From NCBI GenBank assembly GCA_963977445.1, contig CAXBPH010000072.1:1-27812 (forward strand): a stretch of DNA of 27,812 nt, in the 5' to 3' direction. Made by a program: the position numbers and the translations under genes. The DNA comes from an uncultured bacterium (GTDB lineage: Bacteria; Hydrogenedentota; Hydrogenedentia; Hydrogenedentales; JAEUWI01). Shown here in pieces: positions 6,311 to 27,596 of this stretch. A model generated the notes under the pieces. The model did no database searches. It was not told the DNA's origin and saw only the letters and a program-made list of their open reading frames with translations. Within the stretch, counting starts at the first letter, position 1; the number at the start of each line of letters is the position of its first letter.

Positions 6311-8095
6311 TTGTCCCAGAAAGGTCTCTATCCACGCGTGCCGATTTATCCACGAGAAGTTGTTGCGGAAGTCCTGGCGGCCAACGATATAGTCCAGGTA
6401 ATCGGCACCCATGTGGAACTGAAAAACGCGGGCGGTGGTCGAATGAAGGCCCTCTGTCCCTTCCATCGTGAGAAGACCCCTTCCTTCGTTGTTAATCAGG
6501 ATCGCCAGTCTTATCATTGCTTTGGCTGCGGCAAAGGCGGGGATGCCCTCAGCTTTATTATGGAGCAGGAAGGGCTGCACTTCACAGAAGCCCTGCAATC
6601 ATTGGCTGATCGCGGAAACGTTCGGTTGCCCGCCGTTTCGGAAGCCTCGCTGGAGCGGGATGGCCTGCGCATACAATTATTAGCGTTTAATAAGAGCGCC
6701 AGCAAGTTTTACCAGAATATATTGAGTCACCCCACACGGGGACAGAAGGGACGGACCTATCTCGAAAGCCGCGCACTGAAGGACGAAACGATTGAACGTT
6801 TTGGCCTGGGCGTTATCCCGGATGAGTGGTCCCTCTTGTTTGAAGCTGCCCAGAAGAAAAAGACCCCGACAGCGGTATTAGATGGTAGCGGCCTCGTTAA
6901 AATTGGTGAGCGCGGCAATTATTACGACTTGTTTCGTGACCGGCTCATCATCCCGATTAAAGATGTATCGGGCAATGTGGTTGCCTTTGGTGGCCGCGAT
7001 CTGGGCGACAGCCCGGCAAAATACATAAATTCGCCGGAAACGGCTATCTATCGGAAGAGCAAGACGCTCTACGGGCTCCATGAAGCCCGGGACGCCATGC
7101 GCCAGGAAAAATTCGTAATTCTCGTTGAGGGCTATTTTGACGCCCTCCGTTGTTTTGATGCCGGCATTGAAAACGTCGTTGCCACCTGTGGCACGGCCCT
7201 CACATCGGAGCAAGCCTCGTTGATTCGACGCTATGTGCCCGAGGTCGTGTTGGTGTATGACGGTGATGCTGCGGGCATCCAGGCGGCCATGAAAGGCACG
7301 GGTGTCTTAACGGCAGCTGGACTTTCGGTCCGCGGCATGGCCTTGCCCGACAACCAGGATCCGGACGACTACGTCCGGCACCAGGGTGTCGAGGCGTTCC
7401 GTGGACTGCTGGCGGATGCGCCGGATTTTGTGACATTTTACGCGCGTCAGAGCCAGGAGCGTCTGGGCAGCATTGAAGGTGCCACCGCGGTGGCCCATGA
7501 GATATTTGAAATACTGCGTCATATTGACGACGAAGTGCGACTGGATGAGTATCTGCGCCTCGCGGCACAGGAACTCCGCCTGAATGAACGGGCGTGCCGC
7601 ACGGAATATGAGCGTTTCACGACCCAGAGCTATCGTCAACCCATCCAGCAGGAGACCGACGAGTCGGCACCGGTATTTGTCAGCAAAGATGACTGCGATT
7701 TCCTCTCGGCGCTAATTAATAGTAGCGGATTAATGGAAGAAGCACGGTCCGGCCTGGGTGAAGGCGTCGGACTGGGTCTCGGCCCCTTGGCCGAAGTGCT
7801 CAACGTCGTGCTCTTCCGCGATGTTCGCAGTATAGAATTGGATTTTGATACACAAAGTGCCCGGAGCCTCTACGCGGCAGCCACCGCTGTGGAGTCCGAC
7901 ACCATAAAAGACCCCGACGCACTCGTCGGGTTACGCCTGAACCGCCTGAAGAGAGAATCGTTGCGCATTCAAGTCGCAAATGTAATGAAAGAACTTCAGG
8001 AAGCAGAACGTAGCCGGAACACCGTGCGGATGGTTGAATTGCTTCAACAAAAATCACAATTAGGAAAAGAGTTGGAACGGGTCGGGGCATCCTAG
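6311..8095 (+). CDS. dnaG: DNA primase (start may be GTG 6338)
   Basis: CHC2 zinc finger CPFHREKTPSF...HCFGCG, FRDRLIIPI, VAFGGR, KYINSPET, TOPRIM motifs VEGYFD and YDGDAAG, DPDD. Confidence 0.97.
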   Translation: MSQKGLYPRVPIYPREVVAEVLAANDIVQVIGTHVELKNAGGGRMKALCPFHREKTPSFVVNQDRQSYHCFGCGKGGDALSFIMEQEGLHFTEALQSLADRGNVRLPAVSEASLERDGLRIQLLAFNKSASKFYQNILSHPTRGQKGRTYLESRALKDETIERFGLGVIPDEWSLLFEAAQKKKTPTAVLDGSGLVKIGERGNYYDLFRDRLIIPIKDVSGNVVAFGGRDLGDSPAKYINSPETAIYRKSKTLYGLHEARDAMRQEKFVILVEGYFDALRCFDAGIENVVATCGTALTSEQASLIRRYVPEVVLVYDGDAAGIQAAMKGTGVLTAAGLSVRGMALPDNQDPDDYVRHQGVEAFRGLLADAPDFVTFYARQSQERLGSIEGATAVAHEIFEILRHIDDEVRLDEYLRLAAQELRLNERACRTEYERFTTQSYRQPIQQETDESAPVFVSKDDCDFLSALINSSGLMEEARSGLGEGVGLGLGPLAEVLNVVLFRDVRSIELDFDTQSARSLYAAATAVESDTIKDPDALVGLRLNRLKRESLRIQVANVMKELQEAERSRNTVRMVELLQQKSQLGKELERVGAS

Positions 8096-8138
8096 GGATG
8101 CCACGACTACAGCCAACAGTACCAATCGAGGGTAAGCC

Positions 8139-9902
8139 ATGGCCGTAGCGAAGAAAAAGAAGTCGACTATCACCGATCCGAAAACGACCGAGGCCATCAA
8201 GCGTGCCAAGAAAACGGGTAAGCTCACCTATGATGAGTTGGGCGAGCTGCTGCCCAATGACGCCACCCCGGCTCAAATCGATGATGTTATGGTCGCGCTC
8301 AGCGAGACCAATATCGAGATTGTAGACGATCTTAAAATTGATTCGGAGAAAAAGGCCGAAGAAAAGCGCAAAGAAAAAGTTGCCAAGAAGGCCGAACTGC
8401 GCCGGGAAGCCGCCCACACCCGATTGGAACGGGCCGATGACCCGGTTCGCATGTACCTTCGTGAAATGGGTCGGGTCCCTCTCCTGACCAAAGATCAGGA
8501 AGTGGCCATTGCGAAACGTATTGAAGCGGCAGAAGACGATCTGAATGACGTGATTCTGGGCACCCCCTACACCCTCAAAGAAGTCCAGATGATTGGTGCC
8601 CGCCTGCTCGCAGGCCGCCTGAACTATGCGCAAATCTGCAAAGACGAAGACACGCGGAAGTTGCACCGGTTTGTAAACGACCTTCCTGATTTAATGGAAA
8701 GCATCGTCGAACTGGATGAGAATATCGCGACGCAGGATAAGCGCTCACGGCGTACCGGCCTTACGGAAAAAAGCCTGGCCAACATCATGAAAAAGCTTGC
8801 GGATTATCGCGTCGATCAGATCGCTATCATCTGCAAGTTTGACCTGAAGTCGAAAGAAATCGCGAAAATTGGTCGTAAGATCAAGGGGCTTAAGCGACGT
8901 ATTGCCGCATGCCGCGATGAAATTGATCGGGTAGAGCGTGAAGTTGGCTACAACACCGAAACAGTCCACGAAATGGCCGTCAAGCTTCGTCGCACCCCTG
9001 CGGTAGCTGAAAATCTTGGTGTAGAAAAAGAGCCGATTCTTGATGCGGAGCGTCGCCTCACCATCGCGCAGCGTAAAATCGACCAGATCGAGAGTGACGC
9101 CAAGCTTGACGCCGACCAGATCAGCGAATTGATTGACGTCATCAAGCACCGCGAAGAACTCATCTACAACGCCAAGATGGAGCTGGTTGAAGCCAACCTG
9201 CGCCTGGTGGTCAGTATTGGTAAAAAATACACCAACCGGGGCATGTCTTTCCTTGATCTGATTCAGGAAGGCAATATCGGCCTCATGAAGGCGGTAGACA
9301 AGTTCGAATACCAACGTGGCTACAAATTCTCGACCTACGCCACCTGGTGGATTCGCCAGGCCATTACACGCTCCATTGCCGATCAGGCCCGGACAATTCG
9401 TATTCCGGTCCATATGATCGAATCGATCAATAAGCTGGTGCGGACAAGCCGCCGTCTGGTGCAGGAACTCGGTCGCGAACCCAGTCCCGAAGAGATTGCC
9501 GAAGAGATGGAGATGTCCGCCGATAAGGTCCGCTCCATCCTGAAAATCGCCCAGGAGGCCATCAGCCTCGAAACGCCCGTCGGCGATGAAGGCGATTCAA
9601 GCTTTGGCGACTTTATCGAAGACAAGGGTGCCGAGAGTCCCGCCAACGCGACGGCCTTCAGCGTATTCCAGGAGCGCCTCGATGATGTCCTTGGCTCCCT
9701 CACGGAACGAGAAGAAAAAGTGCTTCGCCTCCGCTTTGGGCTCGGCGATGGCTATCCCCGGACCCTGGAAGAAGTCGGCAGCGTGTTCAACGTAACCCGT
9801 GAACGTGTGCGCCAGATTGAAGCCAAGGCGTTGCGCAAGATGCGCCACCCCACGCGCTCCCGCGAATTAAAAACCTTCCTCGACTGGAGCCTGATACAAT
9901 AA
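8139..9902 (+). CDS. rpoD: RNA polymerase primary sigma factor RpoD/SigA
   Basis: Region 1.1, [12 protein letters not shown] (1.2), a non-conserved insert, [74 protein letters not shown]. Follows dnaG. Confidence 0.98.
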
Positions 9903-9924
9903 CACCCGGTCTAGCATACATTTC

Positions 9925-9954
9925 GGGCCGGATGAGAAAAATCTCATCCGGCCC
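9925..9954 (+). terminator. Hairpin after rpoD, probable terminator
   Basis: Perfect 13-bp stem GGGCCGGATGAGA / TCTCATCCGGCCC with an AAAA loop. The following U-tract is weak. Confidence 0.6.
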
Positions 9955-9955
9955 C

Positions 9956-9985
9956 TTGCGTTCAATCCCCTGAACACAGTATGAT
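9956..9985 (+). promoter_or_regulatory. Candidate sigma70 promoter for the tRNA
   Basis: TTGCGT (9956-9961), 18-nt spacer, TATGAT (9980-9985), ending 21 nt upstream of the tRNA 5' end. Confidence 0.45.
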
Positions 9986-10006
9986 CACGACCCAATGTCT
10001 CCCAAA

Positions 10007-10083
10007 GGGCCCTTAGCTCAGTTGGTTAGAGCAGGTGACTCATAATCACTTGGTCGTTGGTTCAAGTCCAACAGGGCCCACCA
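10007..10083 (+). tRNA. ileX: tRNA with CAT anticodon, most likely tRNA-Ile2 (lysidine-modified, ileX-like); integration site of the island
   Basis: 77-nt cloverleaf GGGCCCT...AGGGCCC-A-CCA, D arm GCTCAGTTGGTTAGAGC, anticodon loop CTCATAA (CAT at 10041-10043), T loop TTCAAGT, encoded CCA. Paired G1-C72 and no triple G-C anticodon stem argue against initiator tRNA. The sequence closely resembles enterobacterial ileX as I recall it. Confidence 0.9.
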
Positions 10084-10087
10084 ATTA

Positions 10088-10196
10088 TATCAACGACTTA
10101 CGCACATCGCGTAGGTCGTTTTTTCTGTTTATTGGGAAAATGATGCAAAAATGATGCACTAAAACCGGCCCAAAAATACCCTCGATTTGCATCATT
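10088..10196. promoter_or_regulatory. att-arm-like region: IHF consensus site, tRNA terminator hairpin and candidate integrase arm-type sites
   Basis: TATCAA-CGAC-TTA (10088-10100) matches WATCAANNNNTTR exactly. Hairpin AACGACTTACGC/GCGTAGGTCGTT is followed by a T-run. Direct repeat AAAATGATGCA x2 (10137-10158) and inverted copy TTTGCATCATT (10186-10196). Confidence 0.6.
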
Positions 10197-10326
10197 AAAT
10201 AGTCACCTCCTCTCTAAGTCATTCTTATACATCATCTTATTATGCTTTGACCACGTGTATTATTGTGTTTTGGTGCTATTAGGTGTAGAATGGCGTCGTG
10301 TTAAAACTGAAGGGACGTATGCAACC

Positions 10327-11496
10327 ATGGCGACCATTATTGAACGCAAGACCAAGACCGGTAAGAAACGTTTCACCGTCCAAATACGTATGAAGGGTGC
10401 TAAACCCCTCATTAAGACGTTCCACACTAAGGGGGAGGCTCAAGCGTACATTCAGGACAAGGAAAGCGACATCCGCCACGGGCGCCACTTCCCGGCCCAA
10501 GAGGCAGAGCGACGCACCCTGGGCGAACTGATAGATCGCTACATTGAAACCGTCCTGCCCCAGAAAAGTGAATCAACCCGCTACGGGCAGACTATCCAGC
10601 TGGCCTACTGGCGGCGGGAATTGGGCTACAAGACACTATCGGCACTCACGGCCCCCACCATCGCCGATGAACGCGACAAGCTGTTAATAGGCACCACACA
10701 GCGGAAGGTGGGCGGCAAGCTGGACCGCAAGACTCGAAGCAAAGGCAAGTCGGCAAGCGAGGATATTGAATGCAAACAGCGGACCCCGGCTACAGTGGCC
10801 CGCTATCTGGCTATCCTGTCCCATTGCCTGAGCTACGGCCAACGGGAATTAGGCTGGATTCAAGACAACCCGTGCCGAAACGTGAGTAAACCCAAGGAAC
10901 CCCGTGGGCGGGTTCGCGTACTCGACGAAGACGAAAAGAAACGATTATTGGATGCGTGTAAGGAATCCCAAAACCCCCACTTGTATGATTTCGTCATTCT
11001 TCTACTGAGCACGGCGGCACGTAAAAATGAGATTTTGCAACTGAGCTGGAAGGACGTAGACTTTGACCGCCGTGTCATCGTGTTGGACAAGACCAAGAAC
11101 GGTGACCGACGCGTGCTTCCCCTCCGTGGCGAAGCGGAACGACTTCTAAAGGTACGGTCAAAGATACGACGGCTGGACACGGCCTACATATTCCCCGGTC
11201 CGCGCCGTCACGGACAGGAAACCAAGCCCGTACACATTCAATCCGCATGGGATTGGGCGCTGGAACGTGCAAAGATTACAGACTTCCGAATGCACGACAC
11301 CCGGCACACGGCGGCTAGTGCCATGGCGATGGCGGGTGCGTCTTTGCCGGAACTGGCGGCGCTATTGGGACACCGTCAGTTGGCTATGGTACAACGGTAC
11401 GCGCATTTCTGTGAAGGCCACGGAGGCGAATTGGTAGAGCGGATGAACGCCGCCATGTTCGATGTGAAAATGGTTAGCGATGCGGAAGAAAAGTGA
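10327..11496 (+). CDS. Tyrosine recombinase / phage-type integrase
   Basis: Catalytic residues in order: R (LSTAARKNEI), K (KTKNG), HxxR (MHDTRHT), H (LLGH), Y (VQRYAH). N-terminal arm-binding-like domain MATIIERKTKTGKKRFTVQIR. ATG 10327 is preferred over the ORF-track start at 10255. Confidence 0.95.
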   Translation: MATIIERKTKTGKKRFTVQIRMKGAKPLIKTFHTKGEAQAYIQDKESDIRHGRHFPAQEAERRTLGELIDRYIETVLPQKSESTRYGQTIQLAYWRRELGYKTLSALTAPTIADERDKLLIGTTQRKVGGKLDRKTRSKGKSASEDIECKQRTPATVARYLAILSHCLSYGQRELGWIQDNPCRNVSKPKEPRGRVRVLDEDEKKRLLDACKESQNPHLYDFVILLLSTAARKNEILQLSWKDVDFDRRVIVLDKTKNGDRRVLPLRGEAERLLKVRSKIRRLDTAYIFPGPRRHGQETKPVHIQSAWDWALERAKITDFRMHDTRHTAASAMAMAGASLPELAALLGHRQLAMVQRYAHFCEGHGGELVERMNAAMFDVKMVSDAEEK

Positions 11497-11619
11497 GGAC
11501 CGCCACATGGCGAGATGTTTGATTCTTGGTAGGCCTCACCTACTTTCAACGTTTTGATGGGTTGCACCGAACATATAAATGAACGAAAAACCAACCACCA
11601 CCACAGGAGACCGGAATAC

Positions 11620-11853
11620 ATGACCACAGCAACCCCCGAATCTAACCGCCGACTAATAACCATCGACGCATGGCCAGACTTTCACCCGTGGCCCACTGCC
11701 AATGGCCTACGCTTCTACGTGAAGCACCGCCACACAAACGGACTGGACAAGCACGGCGCAGTGCTGCGCGTTGGCCGTCGAATCCTCATCGATTCAGACC
11801 GATTTCACAAATGGATCGACGCGCAGAACGGCATCGAGGACGGCAAGCCCTGA
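11620..11853 (+). CDS. Small DNA-binding protein, probable excisionase / recombination directionality factor
   Basis: 77 aa with RBS CAGGAGA upstream. WPTANGLRFYV...NGLDKHGAVLRVGRRILIDSDRFHKWI resembles the winged-helix Xis/AlpA-like proteins that follow integrases. Confidence 0.65.
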   Translation: MTTATPESNRRLITIDAWPDFHPWPTANGLRFYVKHRHTNGLDKHGAVLRVGRRILIDSDRFHKWIDAQNGIEDGKP

Positions 11854-11988
11854 CCCGATCAAAAACCTTAGCTTGCACCAAAACTAAGGATATGGGCTAG
11901 GCCGACGGGCCATTGTTCACCGGCTGGTCTGGGAGTCATCCCCCGGAGCCAGCCGGTGGACGCCCTCCACCGACAAGGATGACGGACC

Positions 11989-13413
11989 GTGGAACCAAGA
12001 AGTAAGCGCATACGCGGCGACCGCCCCCCGGACCGTAATGCTCGCCGCCGTGCGTTACACGCACCAAACCTCCGGGACCGTGAGAGCCGCTGTTTTGCCA
12101 TCTATGAGTTGAGTGGTGAGTTTGTGCGGTTTGTTGATGAGGAAGTCCTCCCACTGGTGGACTTGCCCGGCTACAAGCGGACGGAAAAGCAGATCATACT
12201 ACGCCACGCCACCCACAACCTCATCCTTACCGGGTTGGCGGGCCGTGTGGTGGCCGATGGCCGCAATTGCCGTGACAAGGGCGTGCGCCTACGGGTGGGC
12301 GTTTGGGATGCACTGGTCAAGGCAGGTTTTGCGGAATTGCACCGGGGCAGTGAACTATCCGGGAAAACAACACGGTACGCCGCCACCAAGAAACTCTTGA
12401 TCCTGCGCCATCAATGGGAATTACAGATGCTTGAAGGTATCGAACTATTTAGAAACTCCGAACTTTCTTCCCCCACGCACCGGGCTTTGGTCTATCTTCA
12501 CACTGGCAAGGTGGACCTTTTCACCGGGGACCCGTTGCCGGATGAGGAAAAACGGAAACCTGTAAGTTTTCTGGACCACCTTGCCAAGGTGGCGCAACCG
12601 GGGCCGGACGGTAAAGCGGACCCACGGGCTATCCAAAATGGGCTTGACTACTTCAAGGCCAAGGAGGACACCATTGAAAGTATTAACGCCAACAACCTCA
12701 CGCACGGGTGGGCGGCAACTTGCACACACCCGGACGGGACCACGACCACGTTCCAACCAAACGTGTGCCTCCGGCAGATTCATGTAGGGGGTTTTTTCCA
12801 AGCGGCCCGTCTCTACAGTTTTGGGGAGCTATCCGGCCAAAACCTGCCCAAGGAGGTACGGCGCACCATGTTGATCGATGGGGAGAAGGTGGCGGAGTTA
12901 GATTACAGCGGTATGCACCCACGGATGCTGTACCACCGTGAACGGTGCAACCCATCCGGGGACATTTACCAACCGGAGTTGGTTTTACCGGGCTGTGCCA
13001 CCGCTCCCGGCGTCCGGGGGCTTATCAAGCAGGCCACCAACATTTGCTTGAACTGCCGGAGCCGGAGAGCCGCCCATTCATCCATAAACAAGAAGCTACT
13101 CGACCATGGTGATTTGGGCCGCATGATGCTCCAAGAGGCGGGGGGCGTGATCGGACTCGTTAAGCGTCTGGAGGAAGCCCACGCCACCATCTTCATGCAC
13201 TTTTTTACCGGCGTTGGCATGGAACTAATGACGGAGGACGGCAAGATCATGATGGCCGTCATGCGGGCCTTCCGGGACGCGGGCAAGCCCGCCTTGCCCA
13301 TCCATGATAGCGTGGTGTGCCGGGTAAGTGACGCACGGTTTGCACGGGCCACAATGGTGGAGACATACCGCCAAGGACAGAGGTACACACCGGAGATTCA
13401 CCGGAAATTCTAG
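11989..13413 (+). CDS. Divergent family-A-fold nucleic-acid polymerase-like protein (TV-Pol-like candidate)
   Basis: C-terminal half has RLYS...QNLPKEVR, motif A-like VAELDYSGMHPRMLY (Asp codon at 12901), DIY, motif B-like RGLIKQATN and motif C-like ALPIHDSVV (His codon at 13303), in PolA order. No recognisable exonuclease or helicase domain. Confidence 0.6.
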   Translation: MEPRSKRIRGDRPPDRNARRRALHAPNLRDRESRCFAIYELSGEFVRFVDEEVLPLVDLPGYKRTEKQIILRHATHNLILTGLAGRVVADGRNCRDKGVRLRVGVWDALVKAGFAELHRGSELSGKTTRYAATKKLLILRHQWELQMLEGIELFRNSELSSPTHRALVYLHTGKVDLFTGDPLPDEEKRKPVSFLDHLAKVAQPGPDGKADPRAIQNGLDYFKAKEDTIESINANNLTHGWAATCTHPDGTTTTFQPNVCLRQIHVGGFFQAARLYSFGELSGQNLPKEVRRTMLIDGEKVAELDYSGMHPRMLYHRERCNPSGDIYQPELVLPGCATAPGVRGLIKQATNICLNCRSRRAAHSSINKKLLDHGDLGRMMLQEAGGVIGLVKRLEEAHATIFMHFFTGVGMELMTEDGKIMMAVMRAFRDAGKPALPIHDSVVCRVSDARFARATMVETYRQGQRYTPEIHRKF

Positions 13414-13625
13414 GCAGTATCGGGACTGGAAAAAGTGGGTTTTTCGGTCTGTTTTGGTCCGTTTTTTGGGTGTTTTTTATAGCCTTGTAAAGTGCTGGAA
13501 TCACAAGACTTACACCAATATGCATTGGTAGATGCCCCCCCCTCCCCCCCCGCCTTCCCTCCTCCTCCTCCATTTGGAGGCCCCCGGCCCCCCATCTCCA
13601 AGACACCATCCCGGCCCCGGAGGCC

Positions 13626-13889
13626 TTAAAATATCCGTTGTTTGATCGTCCCGTCTTCCATCTCATGGGGTGGCTCTTCCGGACGTGGTACGTATTCAAG
13701 GATCGTAGCCCCCAACTCTTCCTCCATGTATTGGGCATACGTGCCGTCAATGTCCGGACCGTACCCGCCCGCAATGGATACCATTTCCGCCGCACCCTCT
13801 TCTATCAACCGGACCGTGGCCGGGGCCCCCTTGATGAAGACACCACGCACAATTTTGAATTCCTCCCCATTTAGTTCTAACCGTACCAT
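13626..13889 (-). CDS. Hypothetical acidic protein, 87 aa
   Basis: Strong RBS GAAAGGAGG 7 nt before ATG 13889 on the minus strand; protein-like composition (MVRLELNGEEFKIVRG...). Confidence 0.6.
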   Translation of the reverse strand: MVRLELNGEEFKIVRGVFIKGAPATVRLIEEGAAEMVSIAGGYGPDIDGTYAQYMEEELGATILEYVPRPEEPPHEMEDGTIKQRIF

Positions 13890-13997
13890 CTCAAGACCTC
13901 CTTTCCGATTAAATGATAGCATCGTTCTCCGGAAGCCGGAGAAAAAGATCGAAACTAATCCCACCGATAGGACCCCCACAGGTTACCACCCAAAACA

Positions 13998-14040
13998 CCA
14001 CCCGGCATTCAGGCCCCACCCGGCATTCAGGCCCCACCCG
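13998..14040 (+). repeat. 18-bp tandem direct repeat, about 2.4 copies
   Basis: CCACCCGGCATTCAGGCC at 13998-14015 and 14016-14033, plus partial CCACCCG at 14034-14040. Confidence 0.9.
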
Positions 14041-14369
14041 CCCGGACATTGGGAACGCGGGAACACCGCACCCACCGGGAAGTCCCGCACCCGGCCACCG
14101 ACACCACAAAGCCTCCATAAGCCCCTGGAAGCCTCCTGGACCAAAAGTACACCGGAGAGACTCCCCAGCCACTCCCGACTTGAACCGCTGTTTGAGGCCG
14201 GAATTGACTCCCCGTCAGCCTGCATGCAGACCTACCTGAAAGGATTACACCATGGACACCACACCGAACTACGTCTGCACTTCCAGAAGCTTTGGAATGC
14301 GCATGGAACGATGACCTAATAGACGGCCCGTACCATACCGCCGTAATTCCACCAAAAGGAGAGTAATCC

Positions 14370-14603
14370 ATGGAAAAGATCATCTACACAACCGTTTACC
14401 ACGGGGGATCGTATGGTAAAGAGGGGGAGGCCGGACCGGAAACGAAAGATCCGTGGAAACTGGCGGAAATCACCTTGGAAGGAAACGACCAGTGCCTCAC
14501 CGCCACCGCCCCGGACGGCACCTGGAAGAGGTACAAATTCATTGGATCAACTACCCGGCGGTTAATAGCCATTGAGAAAACCACTTCATCGATTTTCGAT
14601 TGA
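14370..14603 (+). CDS. Hypothetical protein, 77 aa
   Basis: RBS AAAGGAGAG just upstream of the ATG, and an intrinsic terminator directly after the stop. Confidence 0.6.
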   Translation: MEKIIYTTVYHGGSYGKEGEAGPETKDPWKLAEITLEGNDQCLTATAPDGTWKRYKFIGSTTRRLIAIEKTTSSIFD

Positions 14604-14608
14604 CACCC

Positions 14609-14644
14609 GCCCTGGACCCGCACAAAACGGTCCAGGGCTTTTCT
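14609..14644 (+). terminator. Rho-independent terminator
   Basis: 10-bp stem GCCCTGGACC / GGTCCAGGGC, 10-nt loop, then TTTTCT. Confidence 0.7.
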
Positions 14645-15910
14645 ATGCCTGTCGTTTTCTACGTAACATTTGTAACACCCACTCGCCAAGGAAAATCGAA
14701 CTATGGTGAGGGAGAAAACCACCATGAAGACCGAAGTCAGGCCCGCCCGCCTTCACTGATAGTATATAGATGACCTATTGGGTCCCGTGCAGTTGCATAA
14801 GATGATAATATCCGAAACTAAGATTGATCTAGGGGAGTTTAGGTACATCGGGCAATACAGGTAGAAGCTGGTACCACGGGGTGGCAGAATGCTCAAAATA
14901 CAACGCGTAATCATTACCCCACCACCATCGCCCGGTTCCAAGTTATGGATCATGTATGGGAAGTTTTGGGATGAGGCCGGTGCCCCACGACTACGCAACC
15001 TAGTTATACCGTCCTCCCGGCCAACACGCTGTTAAGCCCCCAACGCACGAGCCAAGTAGGCCCCGAAATCCAGCCTGCGAGGCGGGCACGCCACGGTAAG
15101 CTACTGATAATTTTGGGATAGGTGGATACGGTAAAGACGATGTCTTTTACTAGCCACCACGGTCACCAATGTTACGCTCCCGGCATCAAACGCAATGTGC
15201 GGGACTACATGGGCTTTAATGCGGATGCCATAAAACTCAAACCGCAACAACGAATGGCCAAACGAATCAAGCACGGGGCCATCATCAATATAAGCTTATC
15301 CGTCGGGATCCCGGAGTTTGCGTAGGCTTACCCGGAGTGGCTTGAGAACCCCACCCGGCACCGTTGGTGTGCGATCTTGCGGACACATCCACATTTCAAC
15401 CTTTGGCCACTAGTGACCAGGCACACTGGTATCTACGTTGGTGACAAGATACTGACCGCGATATACCCCCTGCCCAACAATCACCGCAGAGCGTGATAGA
15501 CGCTATTGTGTGGGGCGGCAGTGATTGGGGCAACATGACAACGTCAAGAACTTTCAAGAGTTCTCTGAGGACGCAGAGCGGGCACGGTGGGCTGGGGCAA
15601 AAACGCAACCCCATAAACCGCTGTTGGGGCCATCAAAACTGTTCACTGCCGTCCTGCCCAAAAAAAGATCGCGCACCATAACCCATTGTTATGAATTGAG
15701 TTGTGATTTTACACCCCCAAGAGAAGACGATCGTAACTCGCGCTCAGGCCGAATATATAGGTAGTGGGAGTGTTTTCCCGCGCACCGCATGGTCGGACTG
15801 TGAACAATTAATCTTCACGGGATGTGGCGGTCTAGGCATAGGCCAGTCACCTACGCACAGTTAGAAGGTACGTGATTGGGAACGAGTAAACCACGGAAAG
15901 GAACAGGTAG

Positions 15911-16300
15911 ATGAACACAAAACGGAATGCCCCAAATGGTATTGAAGACTTCGGGTCAAAACCAAGCAAAAGCTCTCCCGAGGCAGCCGCTCTTTGGGCC
16001 TATGGGAAGCGACAAAATTTTCTGAGCGGCACCGATCCCCTAGAGCTACTGCTGGCACACCTGGGCACAAAGAAGGATAGCGATATTGTCAGATTATTGT
16101 GGGGCAAGACCAGCGCGACTATAGACGAACTTTGGGATCTCACCGAGGAAGAACCCCTAACGACCGACGCCTTGCGAAAGAGAATAGAGCGGTTAAATAT
16201 ACTATTTGTCCAAGCGAAGTTGCCCTTAAGAATCCACAAGGCCCGTGGCAGAGCGAGCAGGCTTGGCAAGCAGAGCGTCTGGCTGGACGTTTGCGCCTAA
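15911..16300 (+). CDS. Hypothetical protein, possible winged-helix DNA-binding domain
   Basis: 129 aa with a purine-rich upstream sequence (GGAAAGGAACAGG). DIVRLLWGKTSATIDELWD...TTDALRKRIERLN...LRIHK resembles an OmpR/PhoB-type wHTH pattern (by eye only). Confidence 0.5.
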   Translation: MNTKRNAPNGIEDFGSKPSKSSPEAAALWAYGKRQNFLSGTDPLELLLAHLGTKKDSDIVRLLWGKTSATIDELWDLTEEEPLTTDALRKRIERLNILFVQAKLPLRIHKARGRASRLGKQSVWLDVCA

Positions 16301-16426
16301 CCCACCTCTCCAATAGGACAGATTCTGTCCTGAATCGGTGTCAAAAAAATTTGTATCATTAACCTCGTTAAGACCCACGCGTGTGGGTCACCTAACAAAT
16401 CTGGAAACAACCAAAGGAGAATTGGA

Positions 16427-16906
16427 ATGAACGAACCGACAACGTGTACCCGTGACGAGATAATCGCAAATAGGCGAAAAGATCTTAAAGAAGCCGGACC
16501 CAGCAAAGCATTATCGTATTTTCTGAAAACAAATGAAAAAGAAAAGCGCGAAGTTGCAGAGAGCGATTGCGAGTTCCTGGGCGGCGGCGGCTTGGGATTG
16601 AATGTTACTCTGCATATGGCAGCACAGAAAGACGCGGAAGAACTCTTCAACCAGCACAACCTGCCTCCGTTGGAAGACGCCATTCTCGAATGCCACACAG
16701 TAATCCTGGCCGCCGCAATCGGGGATTCCGCGCTACGAGCCTACTTTCGCCACCTGCTTGTAGAGCTCTTCGACTGGTGCGATGAACTCGATGGTATGAT
16801 TGATGTCCTGACAGAGATGCACAACAGTCGTGTCGAGATGCCCGTCGACCAGACGCCGGCGTACCTCGAATCGTGGTGGGAAGATTTAGCACCTGTGGCC
16901 AGCTAA
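16427..16906 (+). CDS. Hypothetical acidic, helical protein, 159 aa
   Basis: RBS AAAGGAGA upstream of the ATG; open frame with normal composition; no family recognised. Confidence 0.6.
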   Translation: MNEPTTCTRDEIIANRRKDLKEAGPSKALSYFLKTNEKEKREVAESDCEFLGGGGLGLNVTLHMAAQKDAEELFNQHNLPPLEDAILECHTVILAAAIGDSALRAYFRHLLVELFDWCDELDGMIDVLTEMHNSRVEMPVDQTPAYLESWWEDLAPVAS

Positions 16907-17127
16907 TGGGACGTCTTGGTGAACGTGTGCTGAAGGGCGTCGAAAAGCTTGTGACGTTCCTTTGGACTACCCGCGCCTCCTGCATACGCACGCGGTCCCC
17001 AGTGTGCCAAATAGGGTGGTAGCCGCCAATATCGCCTAAAGCACACGATTTCCTGACATTCCTCTGCTTGCGGTATGTGTTGTTTGGGGTGTACCCTATA
17101 TGGAACATAATAAATAGGAGAAAAGCT

Positions 17128-17724
17128 ATGAAAAAAATAGCGGTTTATATCCGCGTTTCCACCACCGGCCAAAACGAAGAGGGCCAACGTGCGGCCATAA
17201 CGAAATGGCTTACCGCGCATGGCCACGCCCCCGACACCACGTCGTGGTACGTGGATAAGCATACGGCCACGACAATGGCCCGTCCCGCGTTGGACAAACT
17301 ACAAGCGGCCATCTTTGCGGGTAGCCATGCAACAGTGGTGACGTGGCGGCTGGACCGTTTGTCACGCAATATGCGCGACGGTATCAACCTACTTGCCGAA
17401 TGGTGTGATGCCGGGGTGCGGGTTGTATCCATCACCCAGCAAATTGACTTGTCTGGTGTAATGGGCAAGATGATTGCCAACATATTGTTTGGCCTGGCCG
17501 AAATGGAATTGGAGGCAATGAAGGAGCGGCAGCGCGCGGGCATCGATGTGGCGAAGAAGCACGGCGTTTACAAGGGCCGCATGCCCGGCACCACCAAGGC
17601 GAAGCCCGAACGCGCCAAGAAGCTACGTGACAAGGGCCTTAAACAGCACGAGATAGCGGCGGCCTTGGGCATATCACGCACCACCGTCAATCGTTACCTG
17701 AGAGATACCGGGCAGTCGGCCTAG
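17128..17724 (+). CDS. Small serine recombinase (resolvase/invertase family) with C-terminal HTH
   Basis: YIRVST (catalytic Ser), RPAL, VTWRLDRLSRN, AEMELEAMKERQRAGI..AK..G.YKGR, HTH QHEIAAALGISRTTVNRYL. RBS TAGGAG before ATG 17128. Confidence 0.95.
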   Translation: MKKIAVYIRVSTTGQNEEGQRAAITKWLTAHGHAPDTTSWYVDKHTATTMARPALDKLQAAIFAGSHATVVTWRLDRLSRNMRDGINLLAEWCDAGVRVVSITQQIDLSGVMGKMIANILFGLAEMELEAMKERQRAGIDVAKKHGVYKGRMPGTTKAKPERAKKLRDKGLKQHEIAAALGISRTTVNRYLRDTGQSA

Positions 17725-17807
17725 TAAGAAACATAGACGGACCTTGACCGCGCTTTTTTCGCGCAGTATTTCTTGCGATCAAATGATCACCATATATTCC
17801 AGAGCTT

Positions 17808-18878
17808 CTACACAAGCCCCAACTTATCAATATGCGGCTTTAGCGCCCGCTGGAACAAAACCATATCGCTGACCATCGTCTTGCTCAATTTACTAATTTC
17901 GACGTCACTACTCGCAAACCCGCCCTTCGTATACGTTCTCTCGATACGCCCCACGTCATTGTTTGCACCGATTAACTCCCACACGAGGCTTCCACCAAGA
18001 TCCCGCTCAACCTGCGTCTTGTGTCGCTCCAGCTGTTCTAGTGACTGCCGACTCAACGCGGCTCCCTTTTGGATGATGAGCTCGATGGTGGATGTATTCT
18101 TGGTCCTTGCTACGAATCGATAGCTGACTCCCCCGATGCCTGTTTCAATTCGTATATATTTTGTGTATTTGTCTTTCCTGTTTATGGTCAACTCGTTCGT
18201 CCTATCGATCTCCTCCAGCAGGATCGCCCAGAAACGATCCCGCAATTTGTCCGCCGGGCTGCTTCCCCCACTCTGTCCGTGAATCCCGACACCACCCGTG
18301 TTGTTATTTTCCATGAGGCTTGGTTCAACGACCGACCTTAGATCCGCGCCTCTATCGGGGAGCTTGCTTCTGCCTGGAAGTAGCGCATTCTTGGCCCGCT
18401 CCGATTCCAGGTTGGTTTCGATAGAAGCCAAGATTGCCTGAGATAAATTCTCGCCGGCCCTCGCCCAAAGCCCGTCGAAGTAATCGTGACATTGGCCAAC
18501 GATGGACGGCTTCTCGGAGAGAAACCCAAATTCCAGGTTACGATGCATCGCCGATTCGGTCAAATTGGCCGACGCGACAATGACCCGCCTTTCGTCAAAA
18601 ATATACAGCTTTGAATGCAGGTTCTTTATTCCACGAATCTGCGCGCCCGTATTCAAGAGCCAAAGCAGTGCCTCGGTATCGCTGACTCCATTGTAGAAGT
18701 CTTCCTCGTTGAACCGAGTGAGGACTTGAAACTCGCCTACTGAAGAATCCTTGAACGCCCTCTCCACAGCCCCTCGCTTGATGAACGGACACATGATCTT
18801 AATGGTCTCCGTGGCCATCGCGCAGGATTCCGCCAGCACATGCTCCCAATCTGAATCGATTACCATCAAATCCGCCAC
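17808..18878 (-). CDS. PLD-superfamily (single HKD) nuclease domain fused to a DUF4268-like C-terminal domain; candidate restriction/defence protein
   Basis: IMCPFIK, LHSKLYIFDERRVIVASANLT...NLEFG is the HxK-x4-D...SxN nuclease motif. The C-terminal DRFWAILLE...LEQLERHKTQVERDLGGSLVWEL resembles DUF4268. Start placed at GTG 18878 (RBS GAGGGAG); the ORF track extends to 18998. Confidence 0.75.
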   Translation of the reverse strand: MADLMVIDSDWEHVLAESCAMATETIKIMCPFIKRGAVERAFKDSSVGEFQVLTRFNEEDFYNGVSDTEALLWLLNTGAQIRGIKNLHSKLYIFDERRVIVASANLTESAMHRNLEFGFLSEKPSIVGQCHDYFDGLWARAGENLSQAILASIETNLESERAKNALLPGRSKLPDRGADLRSVVEPSLMENNNTGGVGIHGQSGGSSPADKLRDRFWAILLEEIDRTNELTINRKDKYTKYIRIETGIGGVSYRFVARTKNTSTIELIIQKGAALSRQSLEQLERHKTQVERDLGGSLVWELIGANNDVGRIERTYTKGGFASSDVEISKLSKTMVSDMVLFQRALKPHIDKLGLV

Positions 18879-19254
18879 AGTAAGCTCCCTCAATTCGTTG
18901 TTTCGCCACCACGCGCAACGCTCCATGCAAGACGCACCCGGATCGACATGTTCGATACCGTCCCAGACATCATAGCAGAGCGTATCGCCACCCAACACAG
19001 CGTTCCTTCTATCAATTTATGAGCCTGGTCTGGAAGACCTCCGATAATTCGGAGTACCCTTTTGTTGTGGTCATTCTATTGAAGCGGGGCCACGAAGACA
19101 GCTACTATCTCTTCGAGGAGAGTTCACCCCATTCAGGTATGGTCCGGCAATCTCTGGCCATGGCGTTAGCGGGCTCCTTCAATTCGGTGTTGGGGGTGCA
19201 CGGCGGGGTTCATCGATAACGGAGAGACGATATCGCTTCACGAAGCGGTCAAGA

Positions 19255-22200
19255 GTGGGCAAATTGGCTAAACCGACCTTCAATAACTGGACAACCATCT
19301 CAGAATCCCAGTTTCCCTGGGAACGCGATGCGCTGGAATTCGTCCGAGCGCAATTCCCCACACACGAGCCCTATCGGGCCTGGTCCAATTTCGAGTTTAT
19401 CGCCGAAGATGGTAGCGTCAACGAAGTAGACCTGCTCATCTTCTCGCCCCAGGGCTTCTTCCTCATCGAGATCAAAAGTCACCCAGGCCGTCTCTCCGGC
19501 GACGCCGGCACCTGGACCTTCACCGAGAGCGGAAAGATCTGGACGTTAGACAACCCCCTCCTGAGCGCTAACCGCAAGGCCAAAAAGCTCAATTCTCTCC
19601 TTGGCCGTCAGAAGGGTGCCAATAAGAAAGGCCCCATTCCCTATATCGAAGCCCTCGTGTTCTGCTCCCATGCGGACCTGAAGTGCGCGCTGCAAGGCAC
19701 GGCCCTTAGTGGCGTCTGCCTGAGGGATACGGCAGCGGAAAAAGACCGCTCCGCACGCCCCGGCATCATGGCCGCCATAAAACGACGGGAATGTCCCGGC
19801 CTCACCAGTCAGCCCCGGGGCACCCACGACCGGCCCACGGCCAAGGTGGTCAGCCAGGCCCTTGATAAAGCGGGCATACGGCCCCTGCAGCGCACCCGCC
19901 GGGTTTCCGATTATATCTTGGAATCGCTGCTCGACGAAGGCCCCGGTTACCAGGACTGGCTCGCGTCTCACGCCACGTTGAAAGACTCAAAGCGCCGTAT
20001 CCGCCTCTACAACGTACGGCGCGAGGCAAACGCCGAAGACCGTAGCGTCATTGAGCGCGCCGCCAAACGGGAGTTCCAACTCCTCGAAACCGTGCAACAC
20101 GCCGGCATCCTCCGGGCCCACGGCTTCACCGAACACGAACTCGGCCCCGCCCTCATCCTGGAGCACGATCCTGCGGCCCGCCGCCTCGATCTCTATCTCG
20201 CCGAGAGCCAGCAATCCCTGGGCGCAGAAAAGCGCCTTTACCTGCTCCGCCAGATCGCCGAGGTCGTGCGTTTCGCCCACGAAAAGAAGGTGGTCCACCG
20301 CGCTATTTCGCCCCGAAGCATCCTCGTCACCGATCCCGAAAGTGATCACCCCAAAATTCGCCTCTACAACTGGCAACTGGGCTACCGCGACGCCGGCACC
20401 ACCTCGACTGGTGCACCCATATCCAGAACGTCCCATATCGACCGTCTCGTGGATGATTCCAGCACCGCCTTCATGGCACCCGAGGCCCTCTCCGGGGCAG
20501 ACGAGCTCGGCGAACACGTGGATGTCTTCTCCCTGGGCGCGCTGGCCTACTATCTCTTCTCTGGCATGCTCCCAGCCGAAAACGGCGTAGCCCTCAGCGA
20601 AAAACTCCGTGGCAGCAGCGGCCTGCAGATTTCCTCCGTTCTCAACGGAGCTGGTGAAGCCCTCCAGGAGCTCGTGGCCTACAGCACCCACCCCGACGTG
20701 GCCAACCGGCTCGAAATCGTATCCGATTTTCTCGAAATGCTGGACAGCGTCGAGCAGGAACTCCACGCCCCCGCCCACGACATCGTGGAAAATCCCACCG
20801 AGGCCCAGAGTGGCGATCTGCTGCCTGGCGGACTCACCGTCGTCCGGCGCCTGGGCCACGGCAGTACCTCCATCGCCCTCCTCGTCAAGCGGGACGAAGC
20901 CTATTATGTCCTTAAGGTGGCCGCCGACCCCGAATACAACCAGCGCCTCCAGGATGAAGCGGAAATTCTCCAGAAACTGCGCCACCAGCATATCGTCGAG
21001 TTCCACGAGCTCGTCCACATCGGCGATCACCAGGGCGTCCTGGTCCACCCCGCCTTTTCCGACAAAGAAAAACTCCGCATCGAAACCCTGGGCGACCGCC
21101 TTCGCAGAGAGCGCCAGCTCCACGTCGATCTGCTCCAGCGCTTTGGCGAAGACCTCATCGGCACCGTCAGCTACCTCGAAGAACAGGGCATCCCCCACCG
21201 GGACATCAAGCCCGACAACATTGCCGTGGGTATGGTGGGTAAGGGCGACAAACTACATCTGGTCCTTTTCGATTTCTCCCTCTCCCGCGCGCCCGCCGAC
21301 AGCGTCCGCGCCGGCACCAAGGGTTACCTCGATCCCTTGCTACCTGTGCGCAAACGGTGGGACCTCCAGGCCGAGCGCTATGCCGTAGCCGTCACCCTCT
21401 TTGAGCTGGCCACAGGCTCCCTGCCCCAATGGGGCGATGGTAAGACCGACCCCTCGCACCTCTCGTGTGAGGTTAGTCTTGATCCAGAGCGTTTCGACGC
21501 CAGCCTGCGCGATGCCTTCACCGCCTTTTTCCAACAGGGCCTCCGCCGCGACGCCGCCGCCCGCTTCGACAACGCCGAAGACATGCTCCGCGCCTGGCGC
21601 AAGGCCTTCGAAGGCATTGAAGCCCCTGGCGCCCTCACCGAACTTATCACCCCCGAGGACAGGGCCGCGCTGGACGAGCGCCTGGCCCAGGCCACGCCCG
21701 ATACGCCCATTCACGAGCTCGATCTGGGCACCCGCGCCACCAACGCCCTCGATCGCATGAACGTCATCACCGTTAACGATCTCCTCACCATTAAGTTGAA
21801 GGTCCTCCAGCGTCAGCCCGGCGTGGGCAACAAGACCCGCCGCGAGATCGCCCTGGCCACCCGGGCCCTGCGCAAGCGCCTCGGTGCCCTCCCTGCACCC
21901 GAGTCCCGCGTATCGACTACCGAAACGACCGAAGAGACCGGCGACCCCGCCACCATGAGTGTCGATGGCCTTGCGGCCCGCGTCCACAGCCCCGCCCTGA
22001 AGAAAGGTCCGTCTGGGCAGGCCACCATGAATGCCCTCCTGGGCCTCGATACCGCCGTGGACGACCCCTGGCCGAGCCAGATTGAGGTGGCGCGCAAGAT
22101 CGAGCTCACCCGCGCCCGCGTCGGCCAGTTGCTCGGCGGCTTCCAGGAACGCTGGAAAAAACAGCCCTCCATTACCCGCCTTCGGGAAGACCTCGCTGAG

Positions 22201-23487: not shown

Positions 23488-23517
23488 ATAGTGAATTTAG
23501 AATAGTGAATTTAGAAT
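23486..23517 (+). repeat. 14-bp tandem repeat overlapping the pglW stop codon
   Basis: GAATAGTGAATTTA x2 (23486-23513) plus GAAT. Confidence 0.85.
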
Positions 23518-23533
23518 GAAGATGGGTCGGACA

Positions 23534-23696
23534 AAGAAAGGGGCTCAGACATTCCTGTCTGAGATTAAGAAAGGGACTCAGACATTCCTGTCTGAGATTA
23601 AGAAAGGGTCTCAGACATTCCTGTCTGAGATTAAGAAAGGGACTCAGACATTCCTGTCTGAGATTAAGAAAGGGTCTCAGACATTCCTGTCTGAGA
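23534..23696 (+). repeat. Tandem array of five 33-bp palindrome-containing units (REP-like)
   Basis: Unit AAGAAAGGG[G/A/T]CTCAGACA-TTCC-TGTCTGAG-ATT starts at 23534, 23567, 23600, 23633 and 23666 (last copy ends after ...GAGA). The single variable base reads G,A,T,A,T. Confidence 0.95.
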
Positions 23697-23820
23697 AAGA
23701 GCCCACGTCAATATTAGAAAGGCCCGTTGGCATGTATATCAGTCCCAGAAAAACAGTTTGTTGGCATCCCAGGTGACTCCACAACTTCTCCGGGCCTCTT
23801 CAGGTCTGGGCGCGCTTTGC

Positions 23821-23847
23821 CTCAGACAGGAATGTCTGAGCCCCTTT
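23821..23847 (-). repeat. Inverted partner copy of the 33-bp unit core
   Basis: CTCAGACAGGAATGTCTGAGCCCCTTT is the exact 27-nt reverse complement of 23537-23563. Confidence 0.92.
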
Positions 23848-23885
23848 GGGCCCAAGACCACAACCAGAATCGATAGAACAAACTC

Positions 23886-26800: not shown

Positions 26801-27564
26801 TGTGCTCCACGGCCCACCTGGCGGACATCGCCCAGCGGGACCCGGCCTTCCATGCGGCGGCCGCGTTGTACACCAACGACCCCGCCTTCGATGGGGCGCG
26901 GCTGGTGGCGGAGTTGGTGGCGTCGGCGAGCGTGCCCCACCTGCCCGTGCTGCGCTACAAGCCCGCGGGCCTGCGCAAGCGGGAAGTCTGGGAACAGACC
27001 TGGGCCCTCCAGCGTCAGGAGGACGTCCTCGACGCCTGCGCGGCACTGCCGGAGGATCATCCCAACCACCTGTCCAGAGACGAGGCGGACAAGCGGAAAA
27101 AAGCGTCCATCGGGGACATCCCCGTGCCGCCGAAATACGGCAGTGGCGATTTTCTGAAGAGCAGCTACTGGAAGCTCCGGGGCAAGCTCGACGTGCCCAA
27201 AGAGCGCTGGCTGAGCTTCCCCCACGGCGAGGGCCAGGACGGCAGCCTCATGATTGCCTGGGCCGGCTACGATCACCTCCAACTCACCCAGGCCCTCAGT
27301 GCCCACTACGTGGACGTGCAACAGAACATCGGCGGCAGCGACGACCCCCGGCTCCTCCCCCTGCTCGCGAGTTTGATTGAACTAATCCCCTGGCTCAAAC
27401 AATGGCACAACGACCTCGACCCCGAGTTCAACATGGCCATGGGGGATTACTTCGAAGGCTTTGTGCAGGAAGAGGCGCGGGACCTTGGGATGACACTGGA
27501 GGAGGTGAAGGGCTGGGAAGCGCCAAAGAAAATGAAAGTTGCACGCAAAAAGAAGAAGGAATAG
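23886..27564 (+). pseudogene. pglX: BREX type 2 adenine DNA methyltransferase PglX, split by a +1 frameshift near 24159 (pseudogene, phase-OFF allele or sequence error)
   Basis: A PglX-like N-terminus (MVDKKQLL...AAAWVLSTVFVRFLEDNGLI) is in the frame starting 23886. The remainder (GPGEALRHARD..., WDTRFLGDLYQDLSE...KYALLQTPEFVEEFILDRTL, motif I DPACGSGHFL, motif IV NPPY, FVATHNHF, RGKLDVPKER) is in the 23965..27564 frame. Confidence 0.88.
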
Positions 27565-27596
27565 TGAATTGAGAATAGTGAATGGTGAATAGTGAA
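27559..27596 (+). repeat. 14-bp (7+7) tandem repeat overlapping the pglX stop codon
   Basis: GAATAGTGAATTGA, GAATAGTGAATGGT, GAATAGTGAA; the stop TAG at 27562-27564 lies inside the first unit. Confidence 0.85.

Follow-up and report, generated by a model that had tools for sequence, protein, structure and literature searches.

The TV-Pol family of polymerases was defined by Iyer, Abhiman and Aravind (2008, Biol Direct 3:39; PMC2579912), who proposed that its members act as primase-polymerases and regarded them as a minimal, near-ancestral form of the fold shared by DNA polymerase I (Pol I) and T7 RNA polymerase (T7 RNAP). By their definition, a TV-Pol combines a bi-helical thumb of two antiparallel helices, a beta-hairpin with an invariant Arg, two Asp residues in the palm, and fingers that carry an Asp and an RxxxK motif and are inserted after the first palm strand. 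TV-Pols have no nuclease domains, and a subset of them (TV-PolN) has an additional N-terminal domain that was predicted to be all-helical. Their gene neighborhoods include a resolvase of the gamma-delta type, a lambda-type integrase or a transposase, and some members come from planctomycetes. In this study, we analyzed a 27,812-nt stretch of DNA (contig CAXBPH010000072.1 of assembly GCA_963977445.1; the whole stretch is called the window below) in which a gene for a 474-amino-acid protein lies in an island next to a tRNA-Met gene. We report that this protein fits the TV-Pol type and that, as the product of the only replication-type gene of the island, it probably serves as the primase-polymerase that starts replication of the element.

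The TV-Pol member that has been shown experimentally to be a primase is CcPol-MP of SCCmec (Bebel et al. 2020; PMC7581432). According to this paper and a later article (Rice 2023; PMC10061031), CcPol extends primers by itself; when joined by the OB-fold protein MP, it can start primers de novo on single-stranded DNA, for which it uses deoxyribonucleoside triphosphates (dNTPs) only. The 2020 paper also states that E710 and F762 of Pol I have equivalents in CcPol, and that no other TV-Pol member had been characterized at that time. A reclassification published in 2023 places CcPol next to a true PolA cluster (PMC10201439).

The gene in the window is an intact open reading frame (ORF) with a GTG start codon, and all of its catalytic residues are present. 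A preliminary description of this DNA had placed the ORF, three polymerase motifs and the codons of the two catalytic Asp residues (12901 and 13306) exactly where we found them (Table 1), and it had predicted a right-hand fold of the family-A type. The AlphaFold2 model, built with a family alignment of 39 sequences (A1), had a predicted local distance difference test score (pLDDT) of 92.9 and a predicted template modeling score (pTM) of 0.88. A Foldseek search of the PDB with this model gave 151 matches at E≤1e-3 (best E 1.6e-6, probability 1.0). The best 49 of them were all family-A DNA polymerases (Taq, Bst, M. smegmatis Pol1 and apPol), and no RNA polymerase was among these 49. The PDB matches had low TM-scores of about 0.3, as one would anticipate when a hand of several domains bears an additional one. 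In BFVD, the model matched 11 phage proteins of 400-450 amino acids over their full length (E 5e-16 to 5e-21, TM 0.45-0.63), which ranked before the ordinary phage PolAs. D305 closes the strand 299-306 in the model, and H439-D440 lie in the turn between strands 435-438 and 441-445, which is the standard placement for motifs A and C. R274 is in the strand 273-277, the motif B region forms a helix (342-355), and the helices between the two palm strands span residues 309-430. In the thumb region, a long helix (212-236) is accompanied by a short one (194-201). With family-A DNA polymerases as all of the listed PDB matches, a right-hand family-A fold is supported for the polymerase core.

Pol I-type polymerases have a motif A with the steric-gate Glu, a motif B with a Phe and a Tyr, and a motif C that reads His-Asp-Glu. 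In Pol I itself, the corresponding residues are E710, F762 and Y766 (numbering checked on the E. coli polA sequence), of which E710 and F762 discriminate between sugars, and in T7 RNAP the ribose is selected by Tyr639. We compared the family profile by HHalign with E. coli polA and with T7 genes 1 and 5, which were taken from annotated records. Because the E-values are not significant alone, these alignments were used only for the register of residues, on top of the structural match. The best alignment with Pol I joined family residues 271-319 to Pol I 665-719 (E 0.21) and paired R274 with R668, Q284 with Q677, N285 with N678, D305 with D705, H310 with E710 and R312 with R712. A permissive run continued collinearly, pairing R343 with R754, K347 with K758, and H439-D440-S441 with H881-D882-E883. 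The best alignment with T7 RNAP joined family residues 424-462 to RNAP 795-838, including H811-D812-S813 and the helix that follows (E 0.036), and the alignment with T7 DNA polymerase (T7 DNAP) had an E-value of 0.23, or 0.064 in an extended run.

Conservation was counted over non-gap residues in an alignment of 136 sequences (A4), which consists of the query, seven distant members from a word-indexed search and 128 of the 150 listed matches of a profile search (P0085-P0212); the other 22 listed matches were already known from the word-indexed search, and three of them (P0079-P0081) are in the alignment. Both catalytic Asp residues are nearly invariant (D305 in 134/135, D440 in 129/131), and H439 of motif C is found in 131/131. 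The same is true of the Arg and Lys of motif B (R343 and K347, each 134/134) and of R291 (133/133). The Arg of the beta-hairpin (R274) is kept in 125 of 132 sequences, Q284 in 119 of 133, the Asp of the fingers (D325) in 130 of 135, Y327 in 134 of 135 and H398 in 130 of 133. At the steric-gate position (310), Glu does not occur in any of 135 sequences. The residue there is His in 63, Ala in 19, Gln in 14, Asp in nine, Phe in eight, Ile in six, Met in five, Val in four, Ser in three, Asn in two, and Trp and Leu in one each. Aromatic residues of the O-helix are similarly lacking, with 0/134 at position 351 and 4/134 at position 355, where Asn (120/134) stands at the position of T7 RNAP Tyr639. 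The residue after His-Asp in motif C is Ser in 72, Ala in 34 and Gly in 24 sequences, and it is Glu in only one of 131. These counts indicate that the hybrid pattern of motifs, first noticed in this one gene, is a trait of the whole family.

The family is large and has escaped the curated libraries. The word-indexed search with the protein returned 83 proteins at E≤1e-3 with identities of up to 74%, and all the named ones among them are called hypothetical. When the profile of 39 sequences was run against 1.84 billion cluster representatives (clusters at 50% identity), it matched 10,756 clusters at E≤1e-3, 8,343 at E≤1e-10 and 4,555 at E≤1e-30. With so many relatives and near-invariant motif residues, the ORF is not a product of chance. 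The protein had no match in Pfam or NCBIfam, and a Pfam search with the 39 aligned members gave scattered single matches and no polymerase family at E≤10; RNA_pol matched neither the protein nor any of these members. Searches of PDB sequences with the protein and with the profile found nothing significant, and cluster look-ups gave no informative names. In PHROGs, residues 225-461 matched phrog_4756, a family of unknown function (E 2.2e-38), and two weak but well-placed matches were to phrog_414 'RNA polymerase' (E 0.012, residues 417-462) and phrog_17 'DNA polymerase' (E 0.56, residues 284-328). One cluster among the look-alikes in the ESM Atlas had been named automatically as a 'DNA-directed DNA polymerase family A palm domain-containing protein'. 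A search with residues 225-474 found no longer fused forms, which is weak evidence, and the 19 longest of the 150 listed relatives contained no Pfam domain except for one sub-threshold peptidase match. No nuclease domain was found in the protein or in these 19 relatives.

Most of what the preliminary description had said about the protein itself is therefore supported. The three motifs stand in the order of PolA, collinear with Pol I in the HHalign runs, and both catalytic Asp residues are kept in the relatives. The losses of the steric-gate Glu and of the O-helix aromatics hold across the family, motif C with the helix that follows aligns best to T7 RNAP as its label 'RNAP-like' implied, and the protein is a polymerase without an exonuclease domain. 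The fold came out as predicted, with family-A DNA polymerases as the only listed PDB matches. The term 'minimal' has to be abandoned, since about 210 N-terminal residues form a further conserved domain.

This domain (residues 1-210) is conserved in 118 of the 136 aligned sequences, and G120 is present in 123/123. When it was modeled alone by AlphaFold2 from seven sequences (A3), the pLDDT was 75.6 and the model was confident over about the first 120 residues of the modeled stretch (protein residues of about 25-145). The confident stretch is of the alpha/beta type, with the order helix-helix-strand-helix-strand-strand. A Foldseek search of the PDB with the domain gave no match at E≤1e-3, and the weak rows below this threshold were mostly winged-helix proteins: ribosomal eS10 and eS19, regulators of the PadR, MarR and ArsR types, TFIIE and subunits of Pol III. 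The family profile matched the winged-helix domain of cullin at an E-value of 0.11. These rows suggest that the N-terminal domain is possibly a nucleic-acid-binding winged helix, which is a lead and not a result.

The genomic context of relatives was assessed in eight loci, obtained by scanning genome contigs with a narrower alignment (A2), and in the window. The hosts of these loci were Phycisphaeraceae, Rubripirellula, Pirellulaceae, Spirochaetales, Planctomycetia, Planctomycetaceae, Odoribacter and Oceanospirillaceae. ORFs were called crudely as the longest ones; 110 of them were searched in Pfam, and 30 proteins, including six window ORFs, in PHROGs. A homologous small resolvase gene lies 2.2-3.7 kb downstream of the polymerase gene on the same strand in three loci (L002, L003 and L004), and a terminase large subunit gene comes after it in the same three loci and is also present in L007 (phrog_2, E 2e-22 to 5e-30). 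In L002 and L003, which are Pirellulaceae chromosomes, the polymerase gene opens an element of about 10-12 kb (7097-19193 and 9736-20002, respectively) that is closed by a large serine recombinase gene. Arrays of tRNA genes (14 and 19) surround these two elements, a tRNA-Lys(TTT) gene flanks each of them on either side at a spacing of about 10-12 kb, and no long direct repeats were found at their ends. Such an element looks like a small phage-like or satellite-like one. A fragment of a capsid protein gene lies upstream of the polymerase gene in L001, and the window, L002, L003 and L005 have a tRNA gene at most 3 kb upstream. Tyrosine integrases were expected to be the consistent neighbors of the relatives, but this expectation failed: among the nine loci, such a gene accompanies the polymerase gene only in the window, where it lies upstream, and in L008, where it lies directly upstream, with a short integrase-family ORF downstream in L007, and serine recombinases are at least as common.

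No helicase, SSB (a protein that binds single-stranded DNA), second polymerase or other replication gene was recognized in the island part of the window or in the eight loci (about 7 kb around the gene), where the absences in L001, L004, L005, L007 and L008 mean little because these contigs end near the polymerase gene. BLASTP comparison of the window ORFs between 10000 and 19100 with the eight loci gave matches for the polymerase, the resolvase and, weakly, the integrase only, and so no small neighbor is conserved. In L006 (10001-10792, a metagenome-assembled genome of Planctomycetaceae), only the C-terminal half of the gene is left, split over two frames, and this copy is decayed; a SIR2-family gene adjoins it on the opposite strand. 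A copy on a plasmid is interrupted by an IS21 element, and two other plasmid records have no annotation at the match.

Distant homologues were also found in 233 phage records, mostly those of Rheinheimera and Vibrio phages of 80-145 kb, with up to three copies per genome among the matches listed. In Vibrio phage 1.121.O (L010, 4362-5690), the homologue is part of a small block of genes of unknown function on the opposite strand; like a selfish gene that has inserted itself, this block interrupts the succession of neck and head-completion genes. The annotation note of the homologue in Aeromonas phage 4L372D names a hypothetical protein of ICP1.

In the window, the island is inserted at the tRNA-Met gene that follows the dnaG-rpoD pair of the host (6311-10083), and a strong terminator-like hairpin comes after the tRNA (10092-10120). 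The location of the polymerase gene in a mobile element, as proposed beforehand, agrees with the tRNA-Met and tyrosine integrase genes in front of it and with the resolvase gene behind it. The companion claim that no exonuclease, primase or helicase is encoded nearby stands for the island part of the window, where Pfam and PADLOC found none of these domains; it does not stand for the host side of the tRNA, where the DnaG primase gene (6311-8095) lies 3.9 kb upstream of the polymerase gene. The only nuclease-family gene in the island part is that of the PLD/DrmC-like protein, 4.4 kb downstream on the opposite strand, which is not conserved in the relatives. Neither Pfam nor PHROGs nor PADLOC gave a significant match for the 99-amino-acid ORF in the excisionase position, and BLASTP (E≤1e-4) found no counterpart to it in the eight loci, so that the name 'xis' is a guess from its position. 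The hairpin behind the polymerase gene is weak evidence of a terminator, since such sites are not more numerous in the region than in shuffled sequences. No second copy of the tRNA-Met 3' end, and hence no attachment (att) repeat, is present in the window, which leaves the right edge of the island undefined. Between the polymerase and resolvase genes, a stretch of about 3.6 kb (13414-17067) contains only short ORFs with no family match, and may be decayed element DNA or may bear an origin. The GC skew of this stretch is strongly negative, and at 13998-14040 the stretch contains a perfect tandem repeat with a unit of 18 nt.

By its sequence matches, the cargo of the island (17808-27564) comprises a BREX type 2-like (Pgl) set, PglW and PglX, with the PLD/DrmC-like nuclease gene in front of it on the opposite strand; genes for PglY or PglZ, if there are any, would lie past the end of the window. 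Two regions here contain repeats (23484-23696 and 27559-27596): a 33-nt unit with its own palindrome (CTCAGACATTCCTGTCTGAG) is repeated 4.9 times between pglW and pglX, and short GAATAGT(GAAT) repeats come after the stop codons of both genes. These repeats could be regulatory or prone to slippage.

Table 1. Features of the polymerase gene and of its island, in window coordinates.
Feature	Position	Strand	Evidence or remark
TV-Pol-type polymerase gene (P0001)	11989..13413	+	ORF, AlphaFold2 model, Foldseek PDB, phrog_4756
N-terminal accessory domain, residues 1-210, possibly winged-helix	11989..12618	+	
Beta-hairpin Arg and QN motif (R274...Q284 N285)	12808..12849	+	Counterpart of Pol I R668/Q677/N678
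Motif A DYSGMHPR, residues 305-312	12901..12924	+	D305 catalytic; H310 at the steric-gate position
Motif B / O-helix RGLIKQATNICLN, residues 343-355	13015..13053	+	R343, K347, N351, N355
Motif C LPIHDSVV, residues 436-443	13294..13317	+	H439, D440
Terminator-like hairpin directly after the polymerase stop codon	13423..13450	+	Consensus scan, weak evidence
tRNA-Met (CAT), probable attachment site, left island edge	10007..10083	+	ARAGORN; Rfam tRNA 73.4 bits
Tyrosine integrase	10255..11496	+	Pfam Phage_integrase, E 3.5e-33
99-aa ORF, excisionase position	11554..11853	+	Xis label from position only
Small serine resolvase	17068..17724	+	Pfam Resolvase, E 3.6e-33; 3.6 kb downstream of the polymerase gene
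PLD/DrmC-like nuclease with DUF4268	17808-18998	-	PADLOC DrmC 3.1e-38; also PDC-S11/DUF4268
PglW (NERD, kinase and RNAP alpha-CTD-like domains)	19255-23487	+	PADLOC E 0
PglX (methylase with DUF7008)	23965-27564	+	PADLOC E 0

The 474-amino-acid protein fits the TV-Pol description on its features: its motif residues, the missing nuclease domain and the integrase and resolvase genes around it all agree with that description, and the TV-Pol name had already been suggested in the preliminary description. Together with its relatives, it shares with the TV-Pols of PMC2579912 the family-A-like core, the beta-hairpin Arg, the two palm Asp residues, and the fingers with an Asp and RxxxK, as well as the occurrence in mobile elements with an integrase or a resolvase and in planctomycete hosts. 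It differs in that no D5-type helicase gene lies near the gene in the window, and the main text of that paper is silent on a missing steric gate. No direct sequence link to a named member was obtained. In the Microcystis phage Ma-LMM01, which is named as a carrier of a TV-Pol in PMC2579912, HHalign gave a weak alignment with the hypothetical protein gp030 (506 amino acids; E 0.042, 84 columns), collinear across the motif regions. This protein may be the TV-Pol that Iyer et al. reported there. The gp030 gene (L015, 22746-26129) stands beside two transposase genes.

Like CcPol, the protein is an exonuclease-less family-A polymerase in an integrative element beside site-specific recombinases. However, CcPol keeps the equivalents of Glu710 and Phe762, whereas the window family has Glu in none of 135 sequences and no aromatic residue at the Phe position, and the latter is also undetectable by Pfam DNA_pol_A. 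With Pol I (Klenow), it shares the overall fold and the counterparts of R668, Q677, D705, R712, R754, K758, H881 and D882; it differs in lacking the exonuclease domains, the steric-gate Glu, the Phe and Tyr of the O-helix, the Glu of motif C and a Pfam match. With T7-like RNA polymerases, it shares the IHDS of motif C, a similar next helix, the absence of the steric-gate Glu and the presence of an extra N-terminal domain, but it is half the size, has Asn at the Tyr639 position and shows no recognizable promoter-specificity parts. The layout of the island, with a tRNA-side integrative element, a tyrosine recombinase, an unusual polymerase of its own and defense cargo (PglW and PglX), is shared with pipolins. 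Since the pipolin polymerase is a primer-independent enzyme of family B and the one here is family-A-like, this likeness is only an analogy of layout.

How such an enzyme could work in its element can be outlined from these comparisons. After excision of the element by the integrase, the N-terminal domain would hold the element DNA, either at an origin or as a single-stranded template, and may act as MP does for CcPol or as the N-terminal domain does in T7 RNAP. The palm would carry out two-metal nucleotidyl transfer through D305 and D440, with R343 and K347 binding the incoming triphosphate and R274 and R291 contacting the primer and the template. The enzyme would make a primer de novo, extend it somewhat and hand it over to the replisome of the host, because the element carries no helicase, clamp or SSB. 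Since neither the Glu steric gate nor the aromatics of the O-helix are kept across the family, the sugar would be selected less strictly, and the use of ribonucleoside triphosphates (rNTPs) is plausible. What we observed is the fold, the retention of the catalytic residues in the relatives, a polymerase free of nuclease domains and its setting in a mobile element; we infer the priming, the DNA binding, the hand-over and the relaxed sugar selection by analogy. It is also possible, though we put this forward only tentatively, that the protein is a self-contained primase that starts de novo at a specific site of the element without an SSB partner or a helicase and accepts rNTPs.

Several results weigh against the assignment and against the proposed role. 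The HHalign links to Pol I and to the T7 polymerases are not significant as sequence matches (E 0.21, 0.036 and 0.064), none of the 39 family members matches Pfam DNA_pol_A at E≤10, and the family hidden Markov model (HMM) finds nothing at E<1 in the genome of Ma-LMM01. The N-terminal domain is modeled as alpha/beta and not as the all-helical domain predicted for TV-PolN, and its winged-helix match is not significant (best E 0.076). Priming by CcPol needs the OB-fold protein MP, and CcPol pairs with a helicase; neither partner was recognized in the window or in the eight loci. Our literature search, outside which most subscription journals lay, found no biochemical study of a TV-Pol with an N-terminal domain. 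Finally, the element in the window may itself be decayed, as there is no family-matching ORF between 13.4 and 17.0 kb and no att repeat.

The competing explanation that survives best is that the protein is a small single-subunit RNA polymerase, a miniature T7 RNAP that transcribes the genes of the element and recognizes promoters with its N-terminal domain. The best sequence matches of motif C and its helix are indeed T7 RNAP and phrog_414, the residue after His-Asp is Ser, Ala or Gly in place of the Glu of Pol I in all but one sequence, and the steric-gate Glu is missing throughout. A nucleic-acid-binding domain at the N-terminus would also parallel the promoter-binding N-terminus of T7 RNAP, a comparison that is drawn in PMC10061031. 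However, the 49 listed structural matches include no RNA polymerase, Pfam RNA_pol does not match, and the position of Tyr639 is occupied by Asn in most of the family. Promoter melting by T7 RNAP relies on parts most of which this 474-amino-acid protein lacks, and the related elements carry ordinary-looking genes. We consider this explanation unlikely.

It is less probable still that the polymerase is part of a defense or conflict system, for example as an enzyme that makes a DNA or RNA product upon phage infection. The genes for PglW, PglX and a DrmC-like nuclease share its island, and the distant homologues in phages occupy odd places, some phages having two or three copies. Moreover, PMC10061031 raises defense as a possible role of PolA-SSB primases, and pipolins, the PolB analogue, are reported as defense islands in PMC11551731. 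Against this, PADLOC assigns the polymerase to no defense family except for a partial match to Csx3-AAA (20 bits, E 6.7e-5, residues 39-100), and none of the PglW, PglX and DrmC-like cargo is conserved beside the polymerase gene in the related loci, with BREX-type genes next to it in 0/8. The recurring partners are recombinases and terminase, that is, genes for mobility and packaging.

Equally improbable is a relic or a non-replicative accessory polymerase that serves gap filling or post-transfer repair without priming, or that is carried passively in a decaying island: the empty 13.4-17.0 kb stretch, the lack of an att repeat, the truncated and frame-broken copy in L006, the plasmid copy cut by IS21 and the mention of second-strand synthesis after transfer among the roles discussed in PMC10061031 would suit it, but no catalytic residue is missing from the intact ORF, and the very large and well-conserved family (4,555 clusters at E≤1e-30) points to an active enzyme maintained by selection.

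For the TV-Pol-type primase-polymerase that we favor, the family itself was described in 2008 and was named in the preliminary description, and for the window gene the result is the annotation of a replication gene, that of a tRNA-Met island which carries a BREX type 2-like (Pgl) system. What is new is how large the family is, that curated libraries miss it, and that all of it has lost the steric gate and the aromatics of the O-helix, in which it is unlike CcPol. The phage-like make-up of the related elements, with resolvase, terminase and serine integrase genes beside tRNA genes, is also new, as is the N-terminal domain, modeled as possibly a winged helix. Among TV-Pols, assays have been made of CcPol alone, an atypical and Pol I-like member, and the window family differs from it at the residues that set the choice of sugar. 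These findings raise the questions of whether a family-A core can prime alone, whether it uses rNTPs, dNTPs or both, and how replication proceeds in phage-like islands and in small elements bounded by recombinases when they have no helicase of their own. If the protein were a self-contained primase, the family would represent a living intermediate between DNA polymerase I and the T7-type RNA polymerases, and it would add one more kind to the primases, distinct from the DnaG and AEP families.

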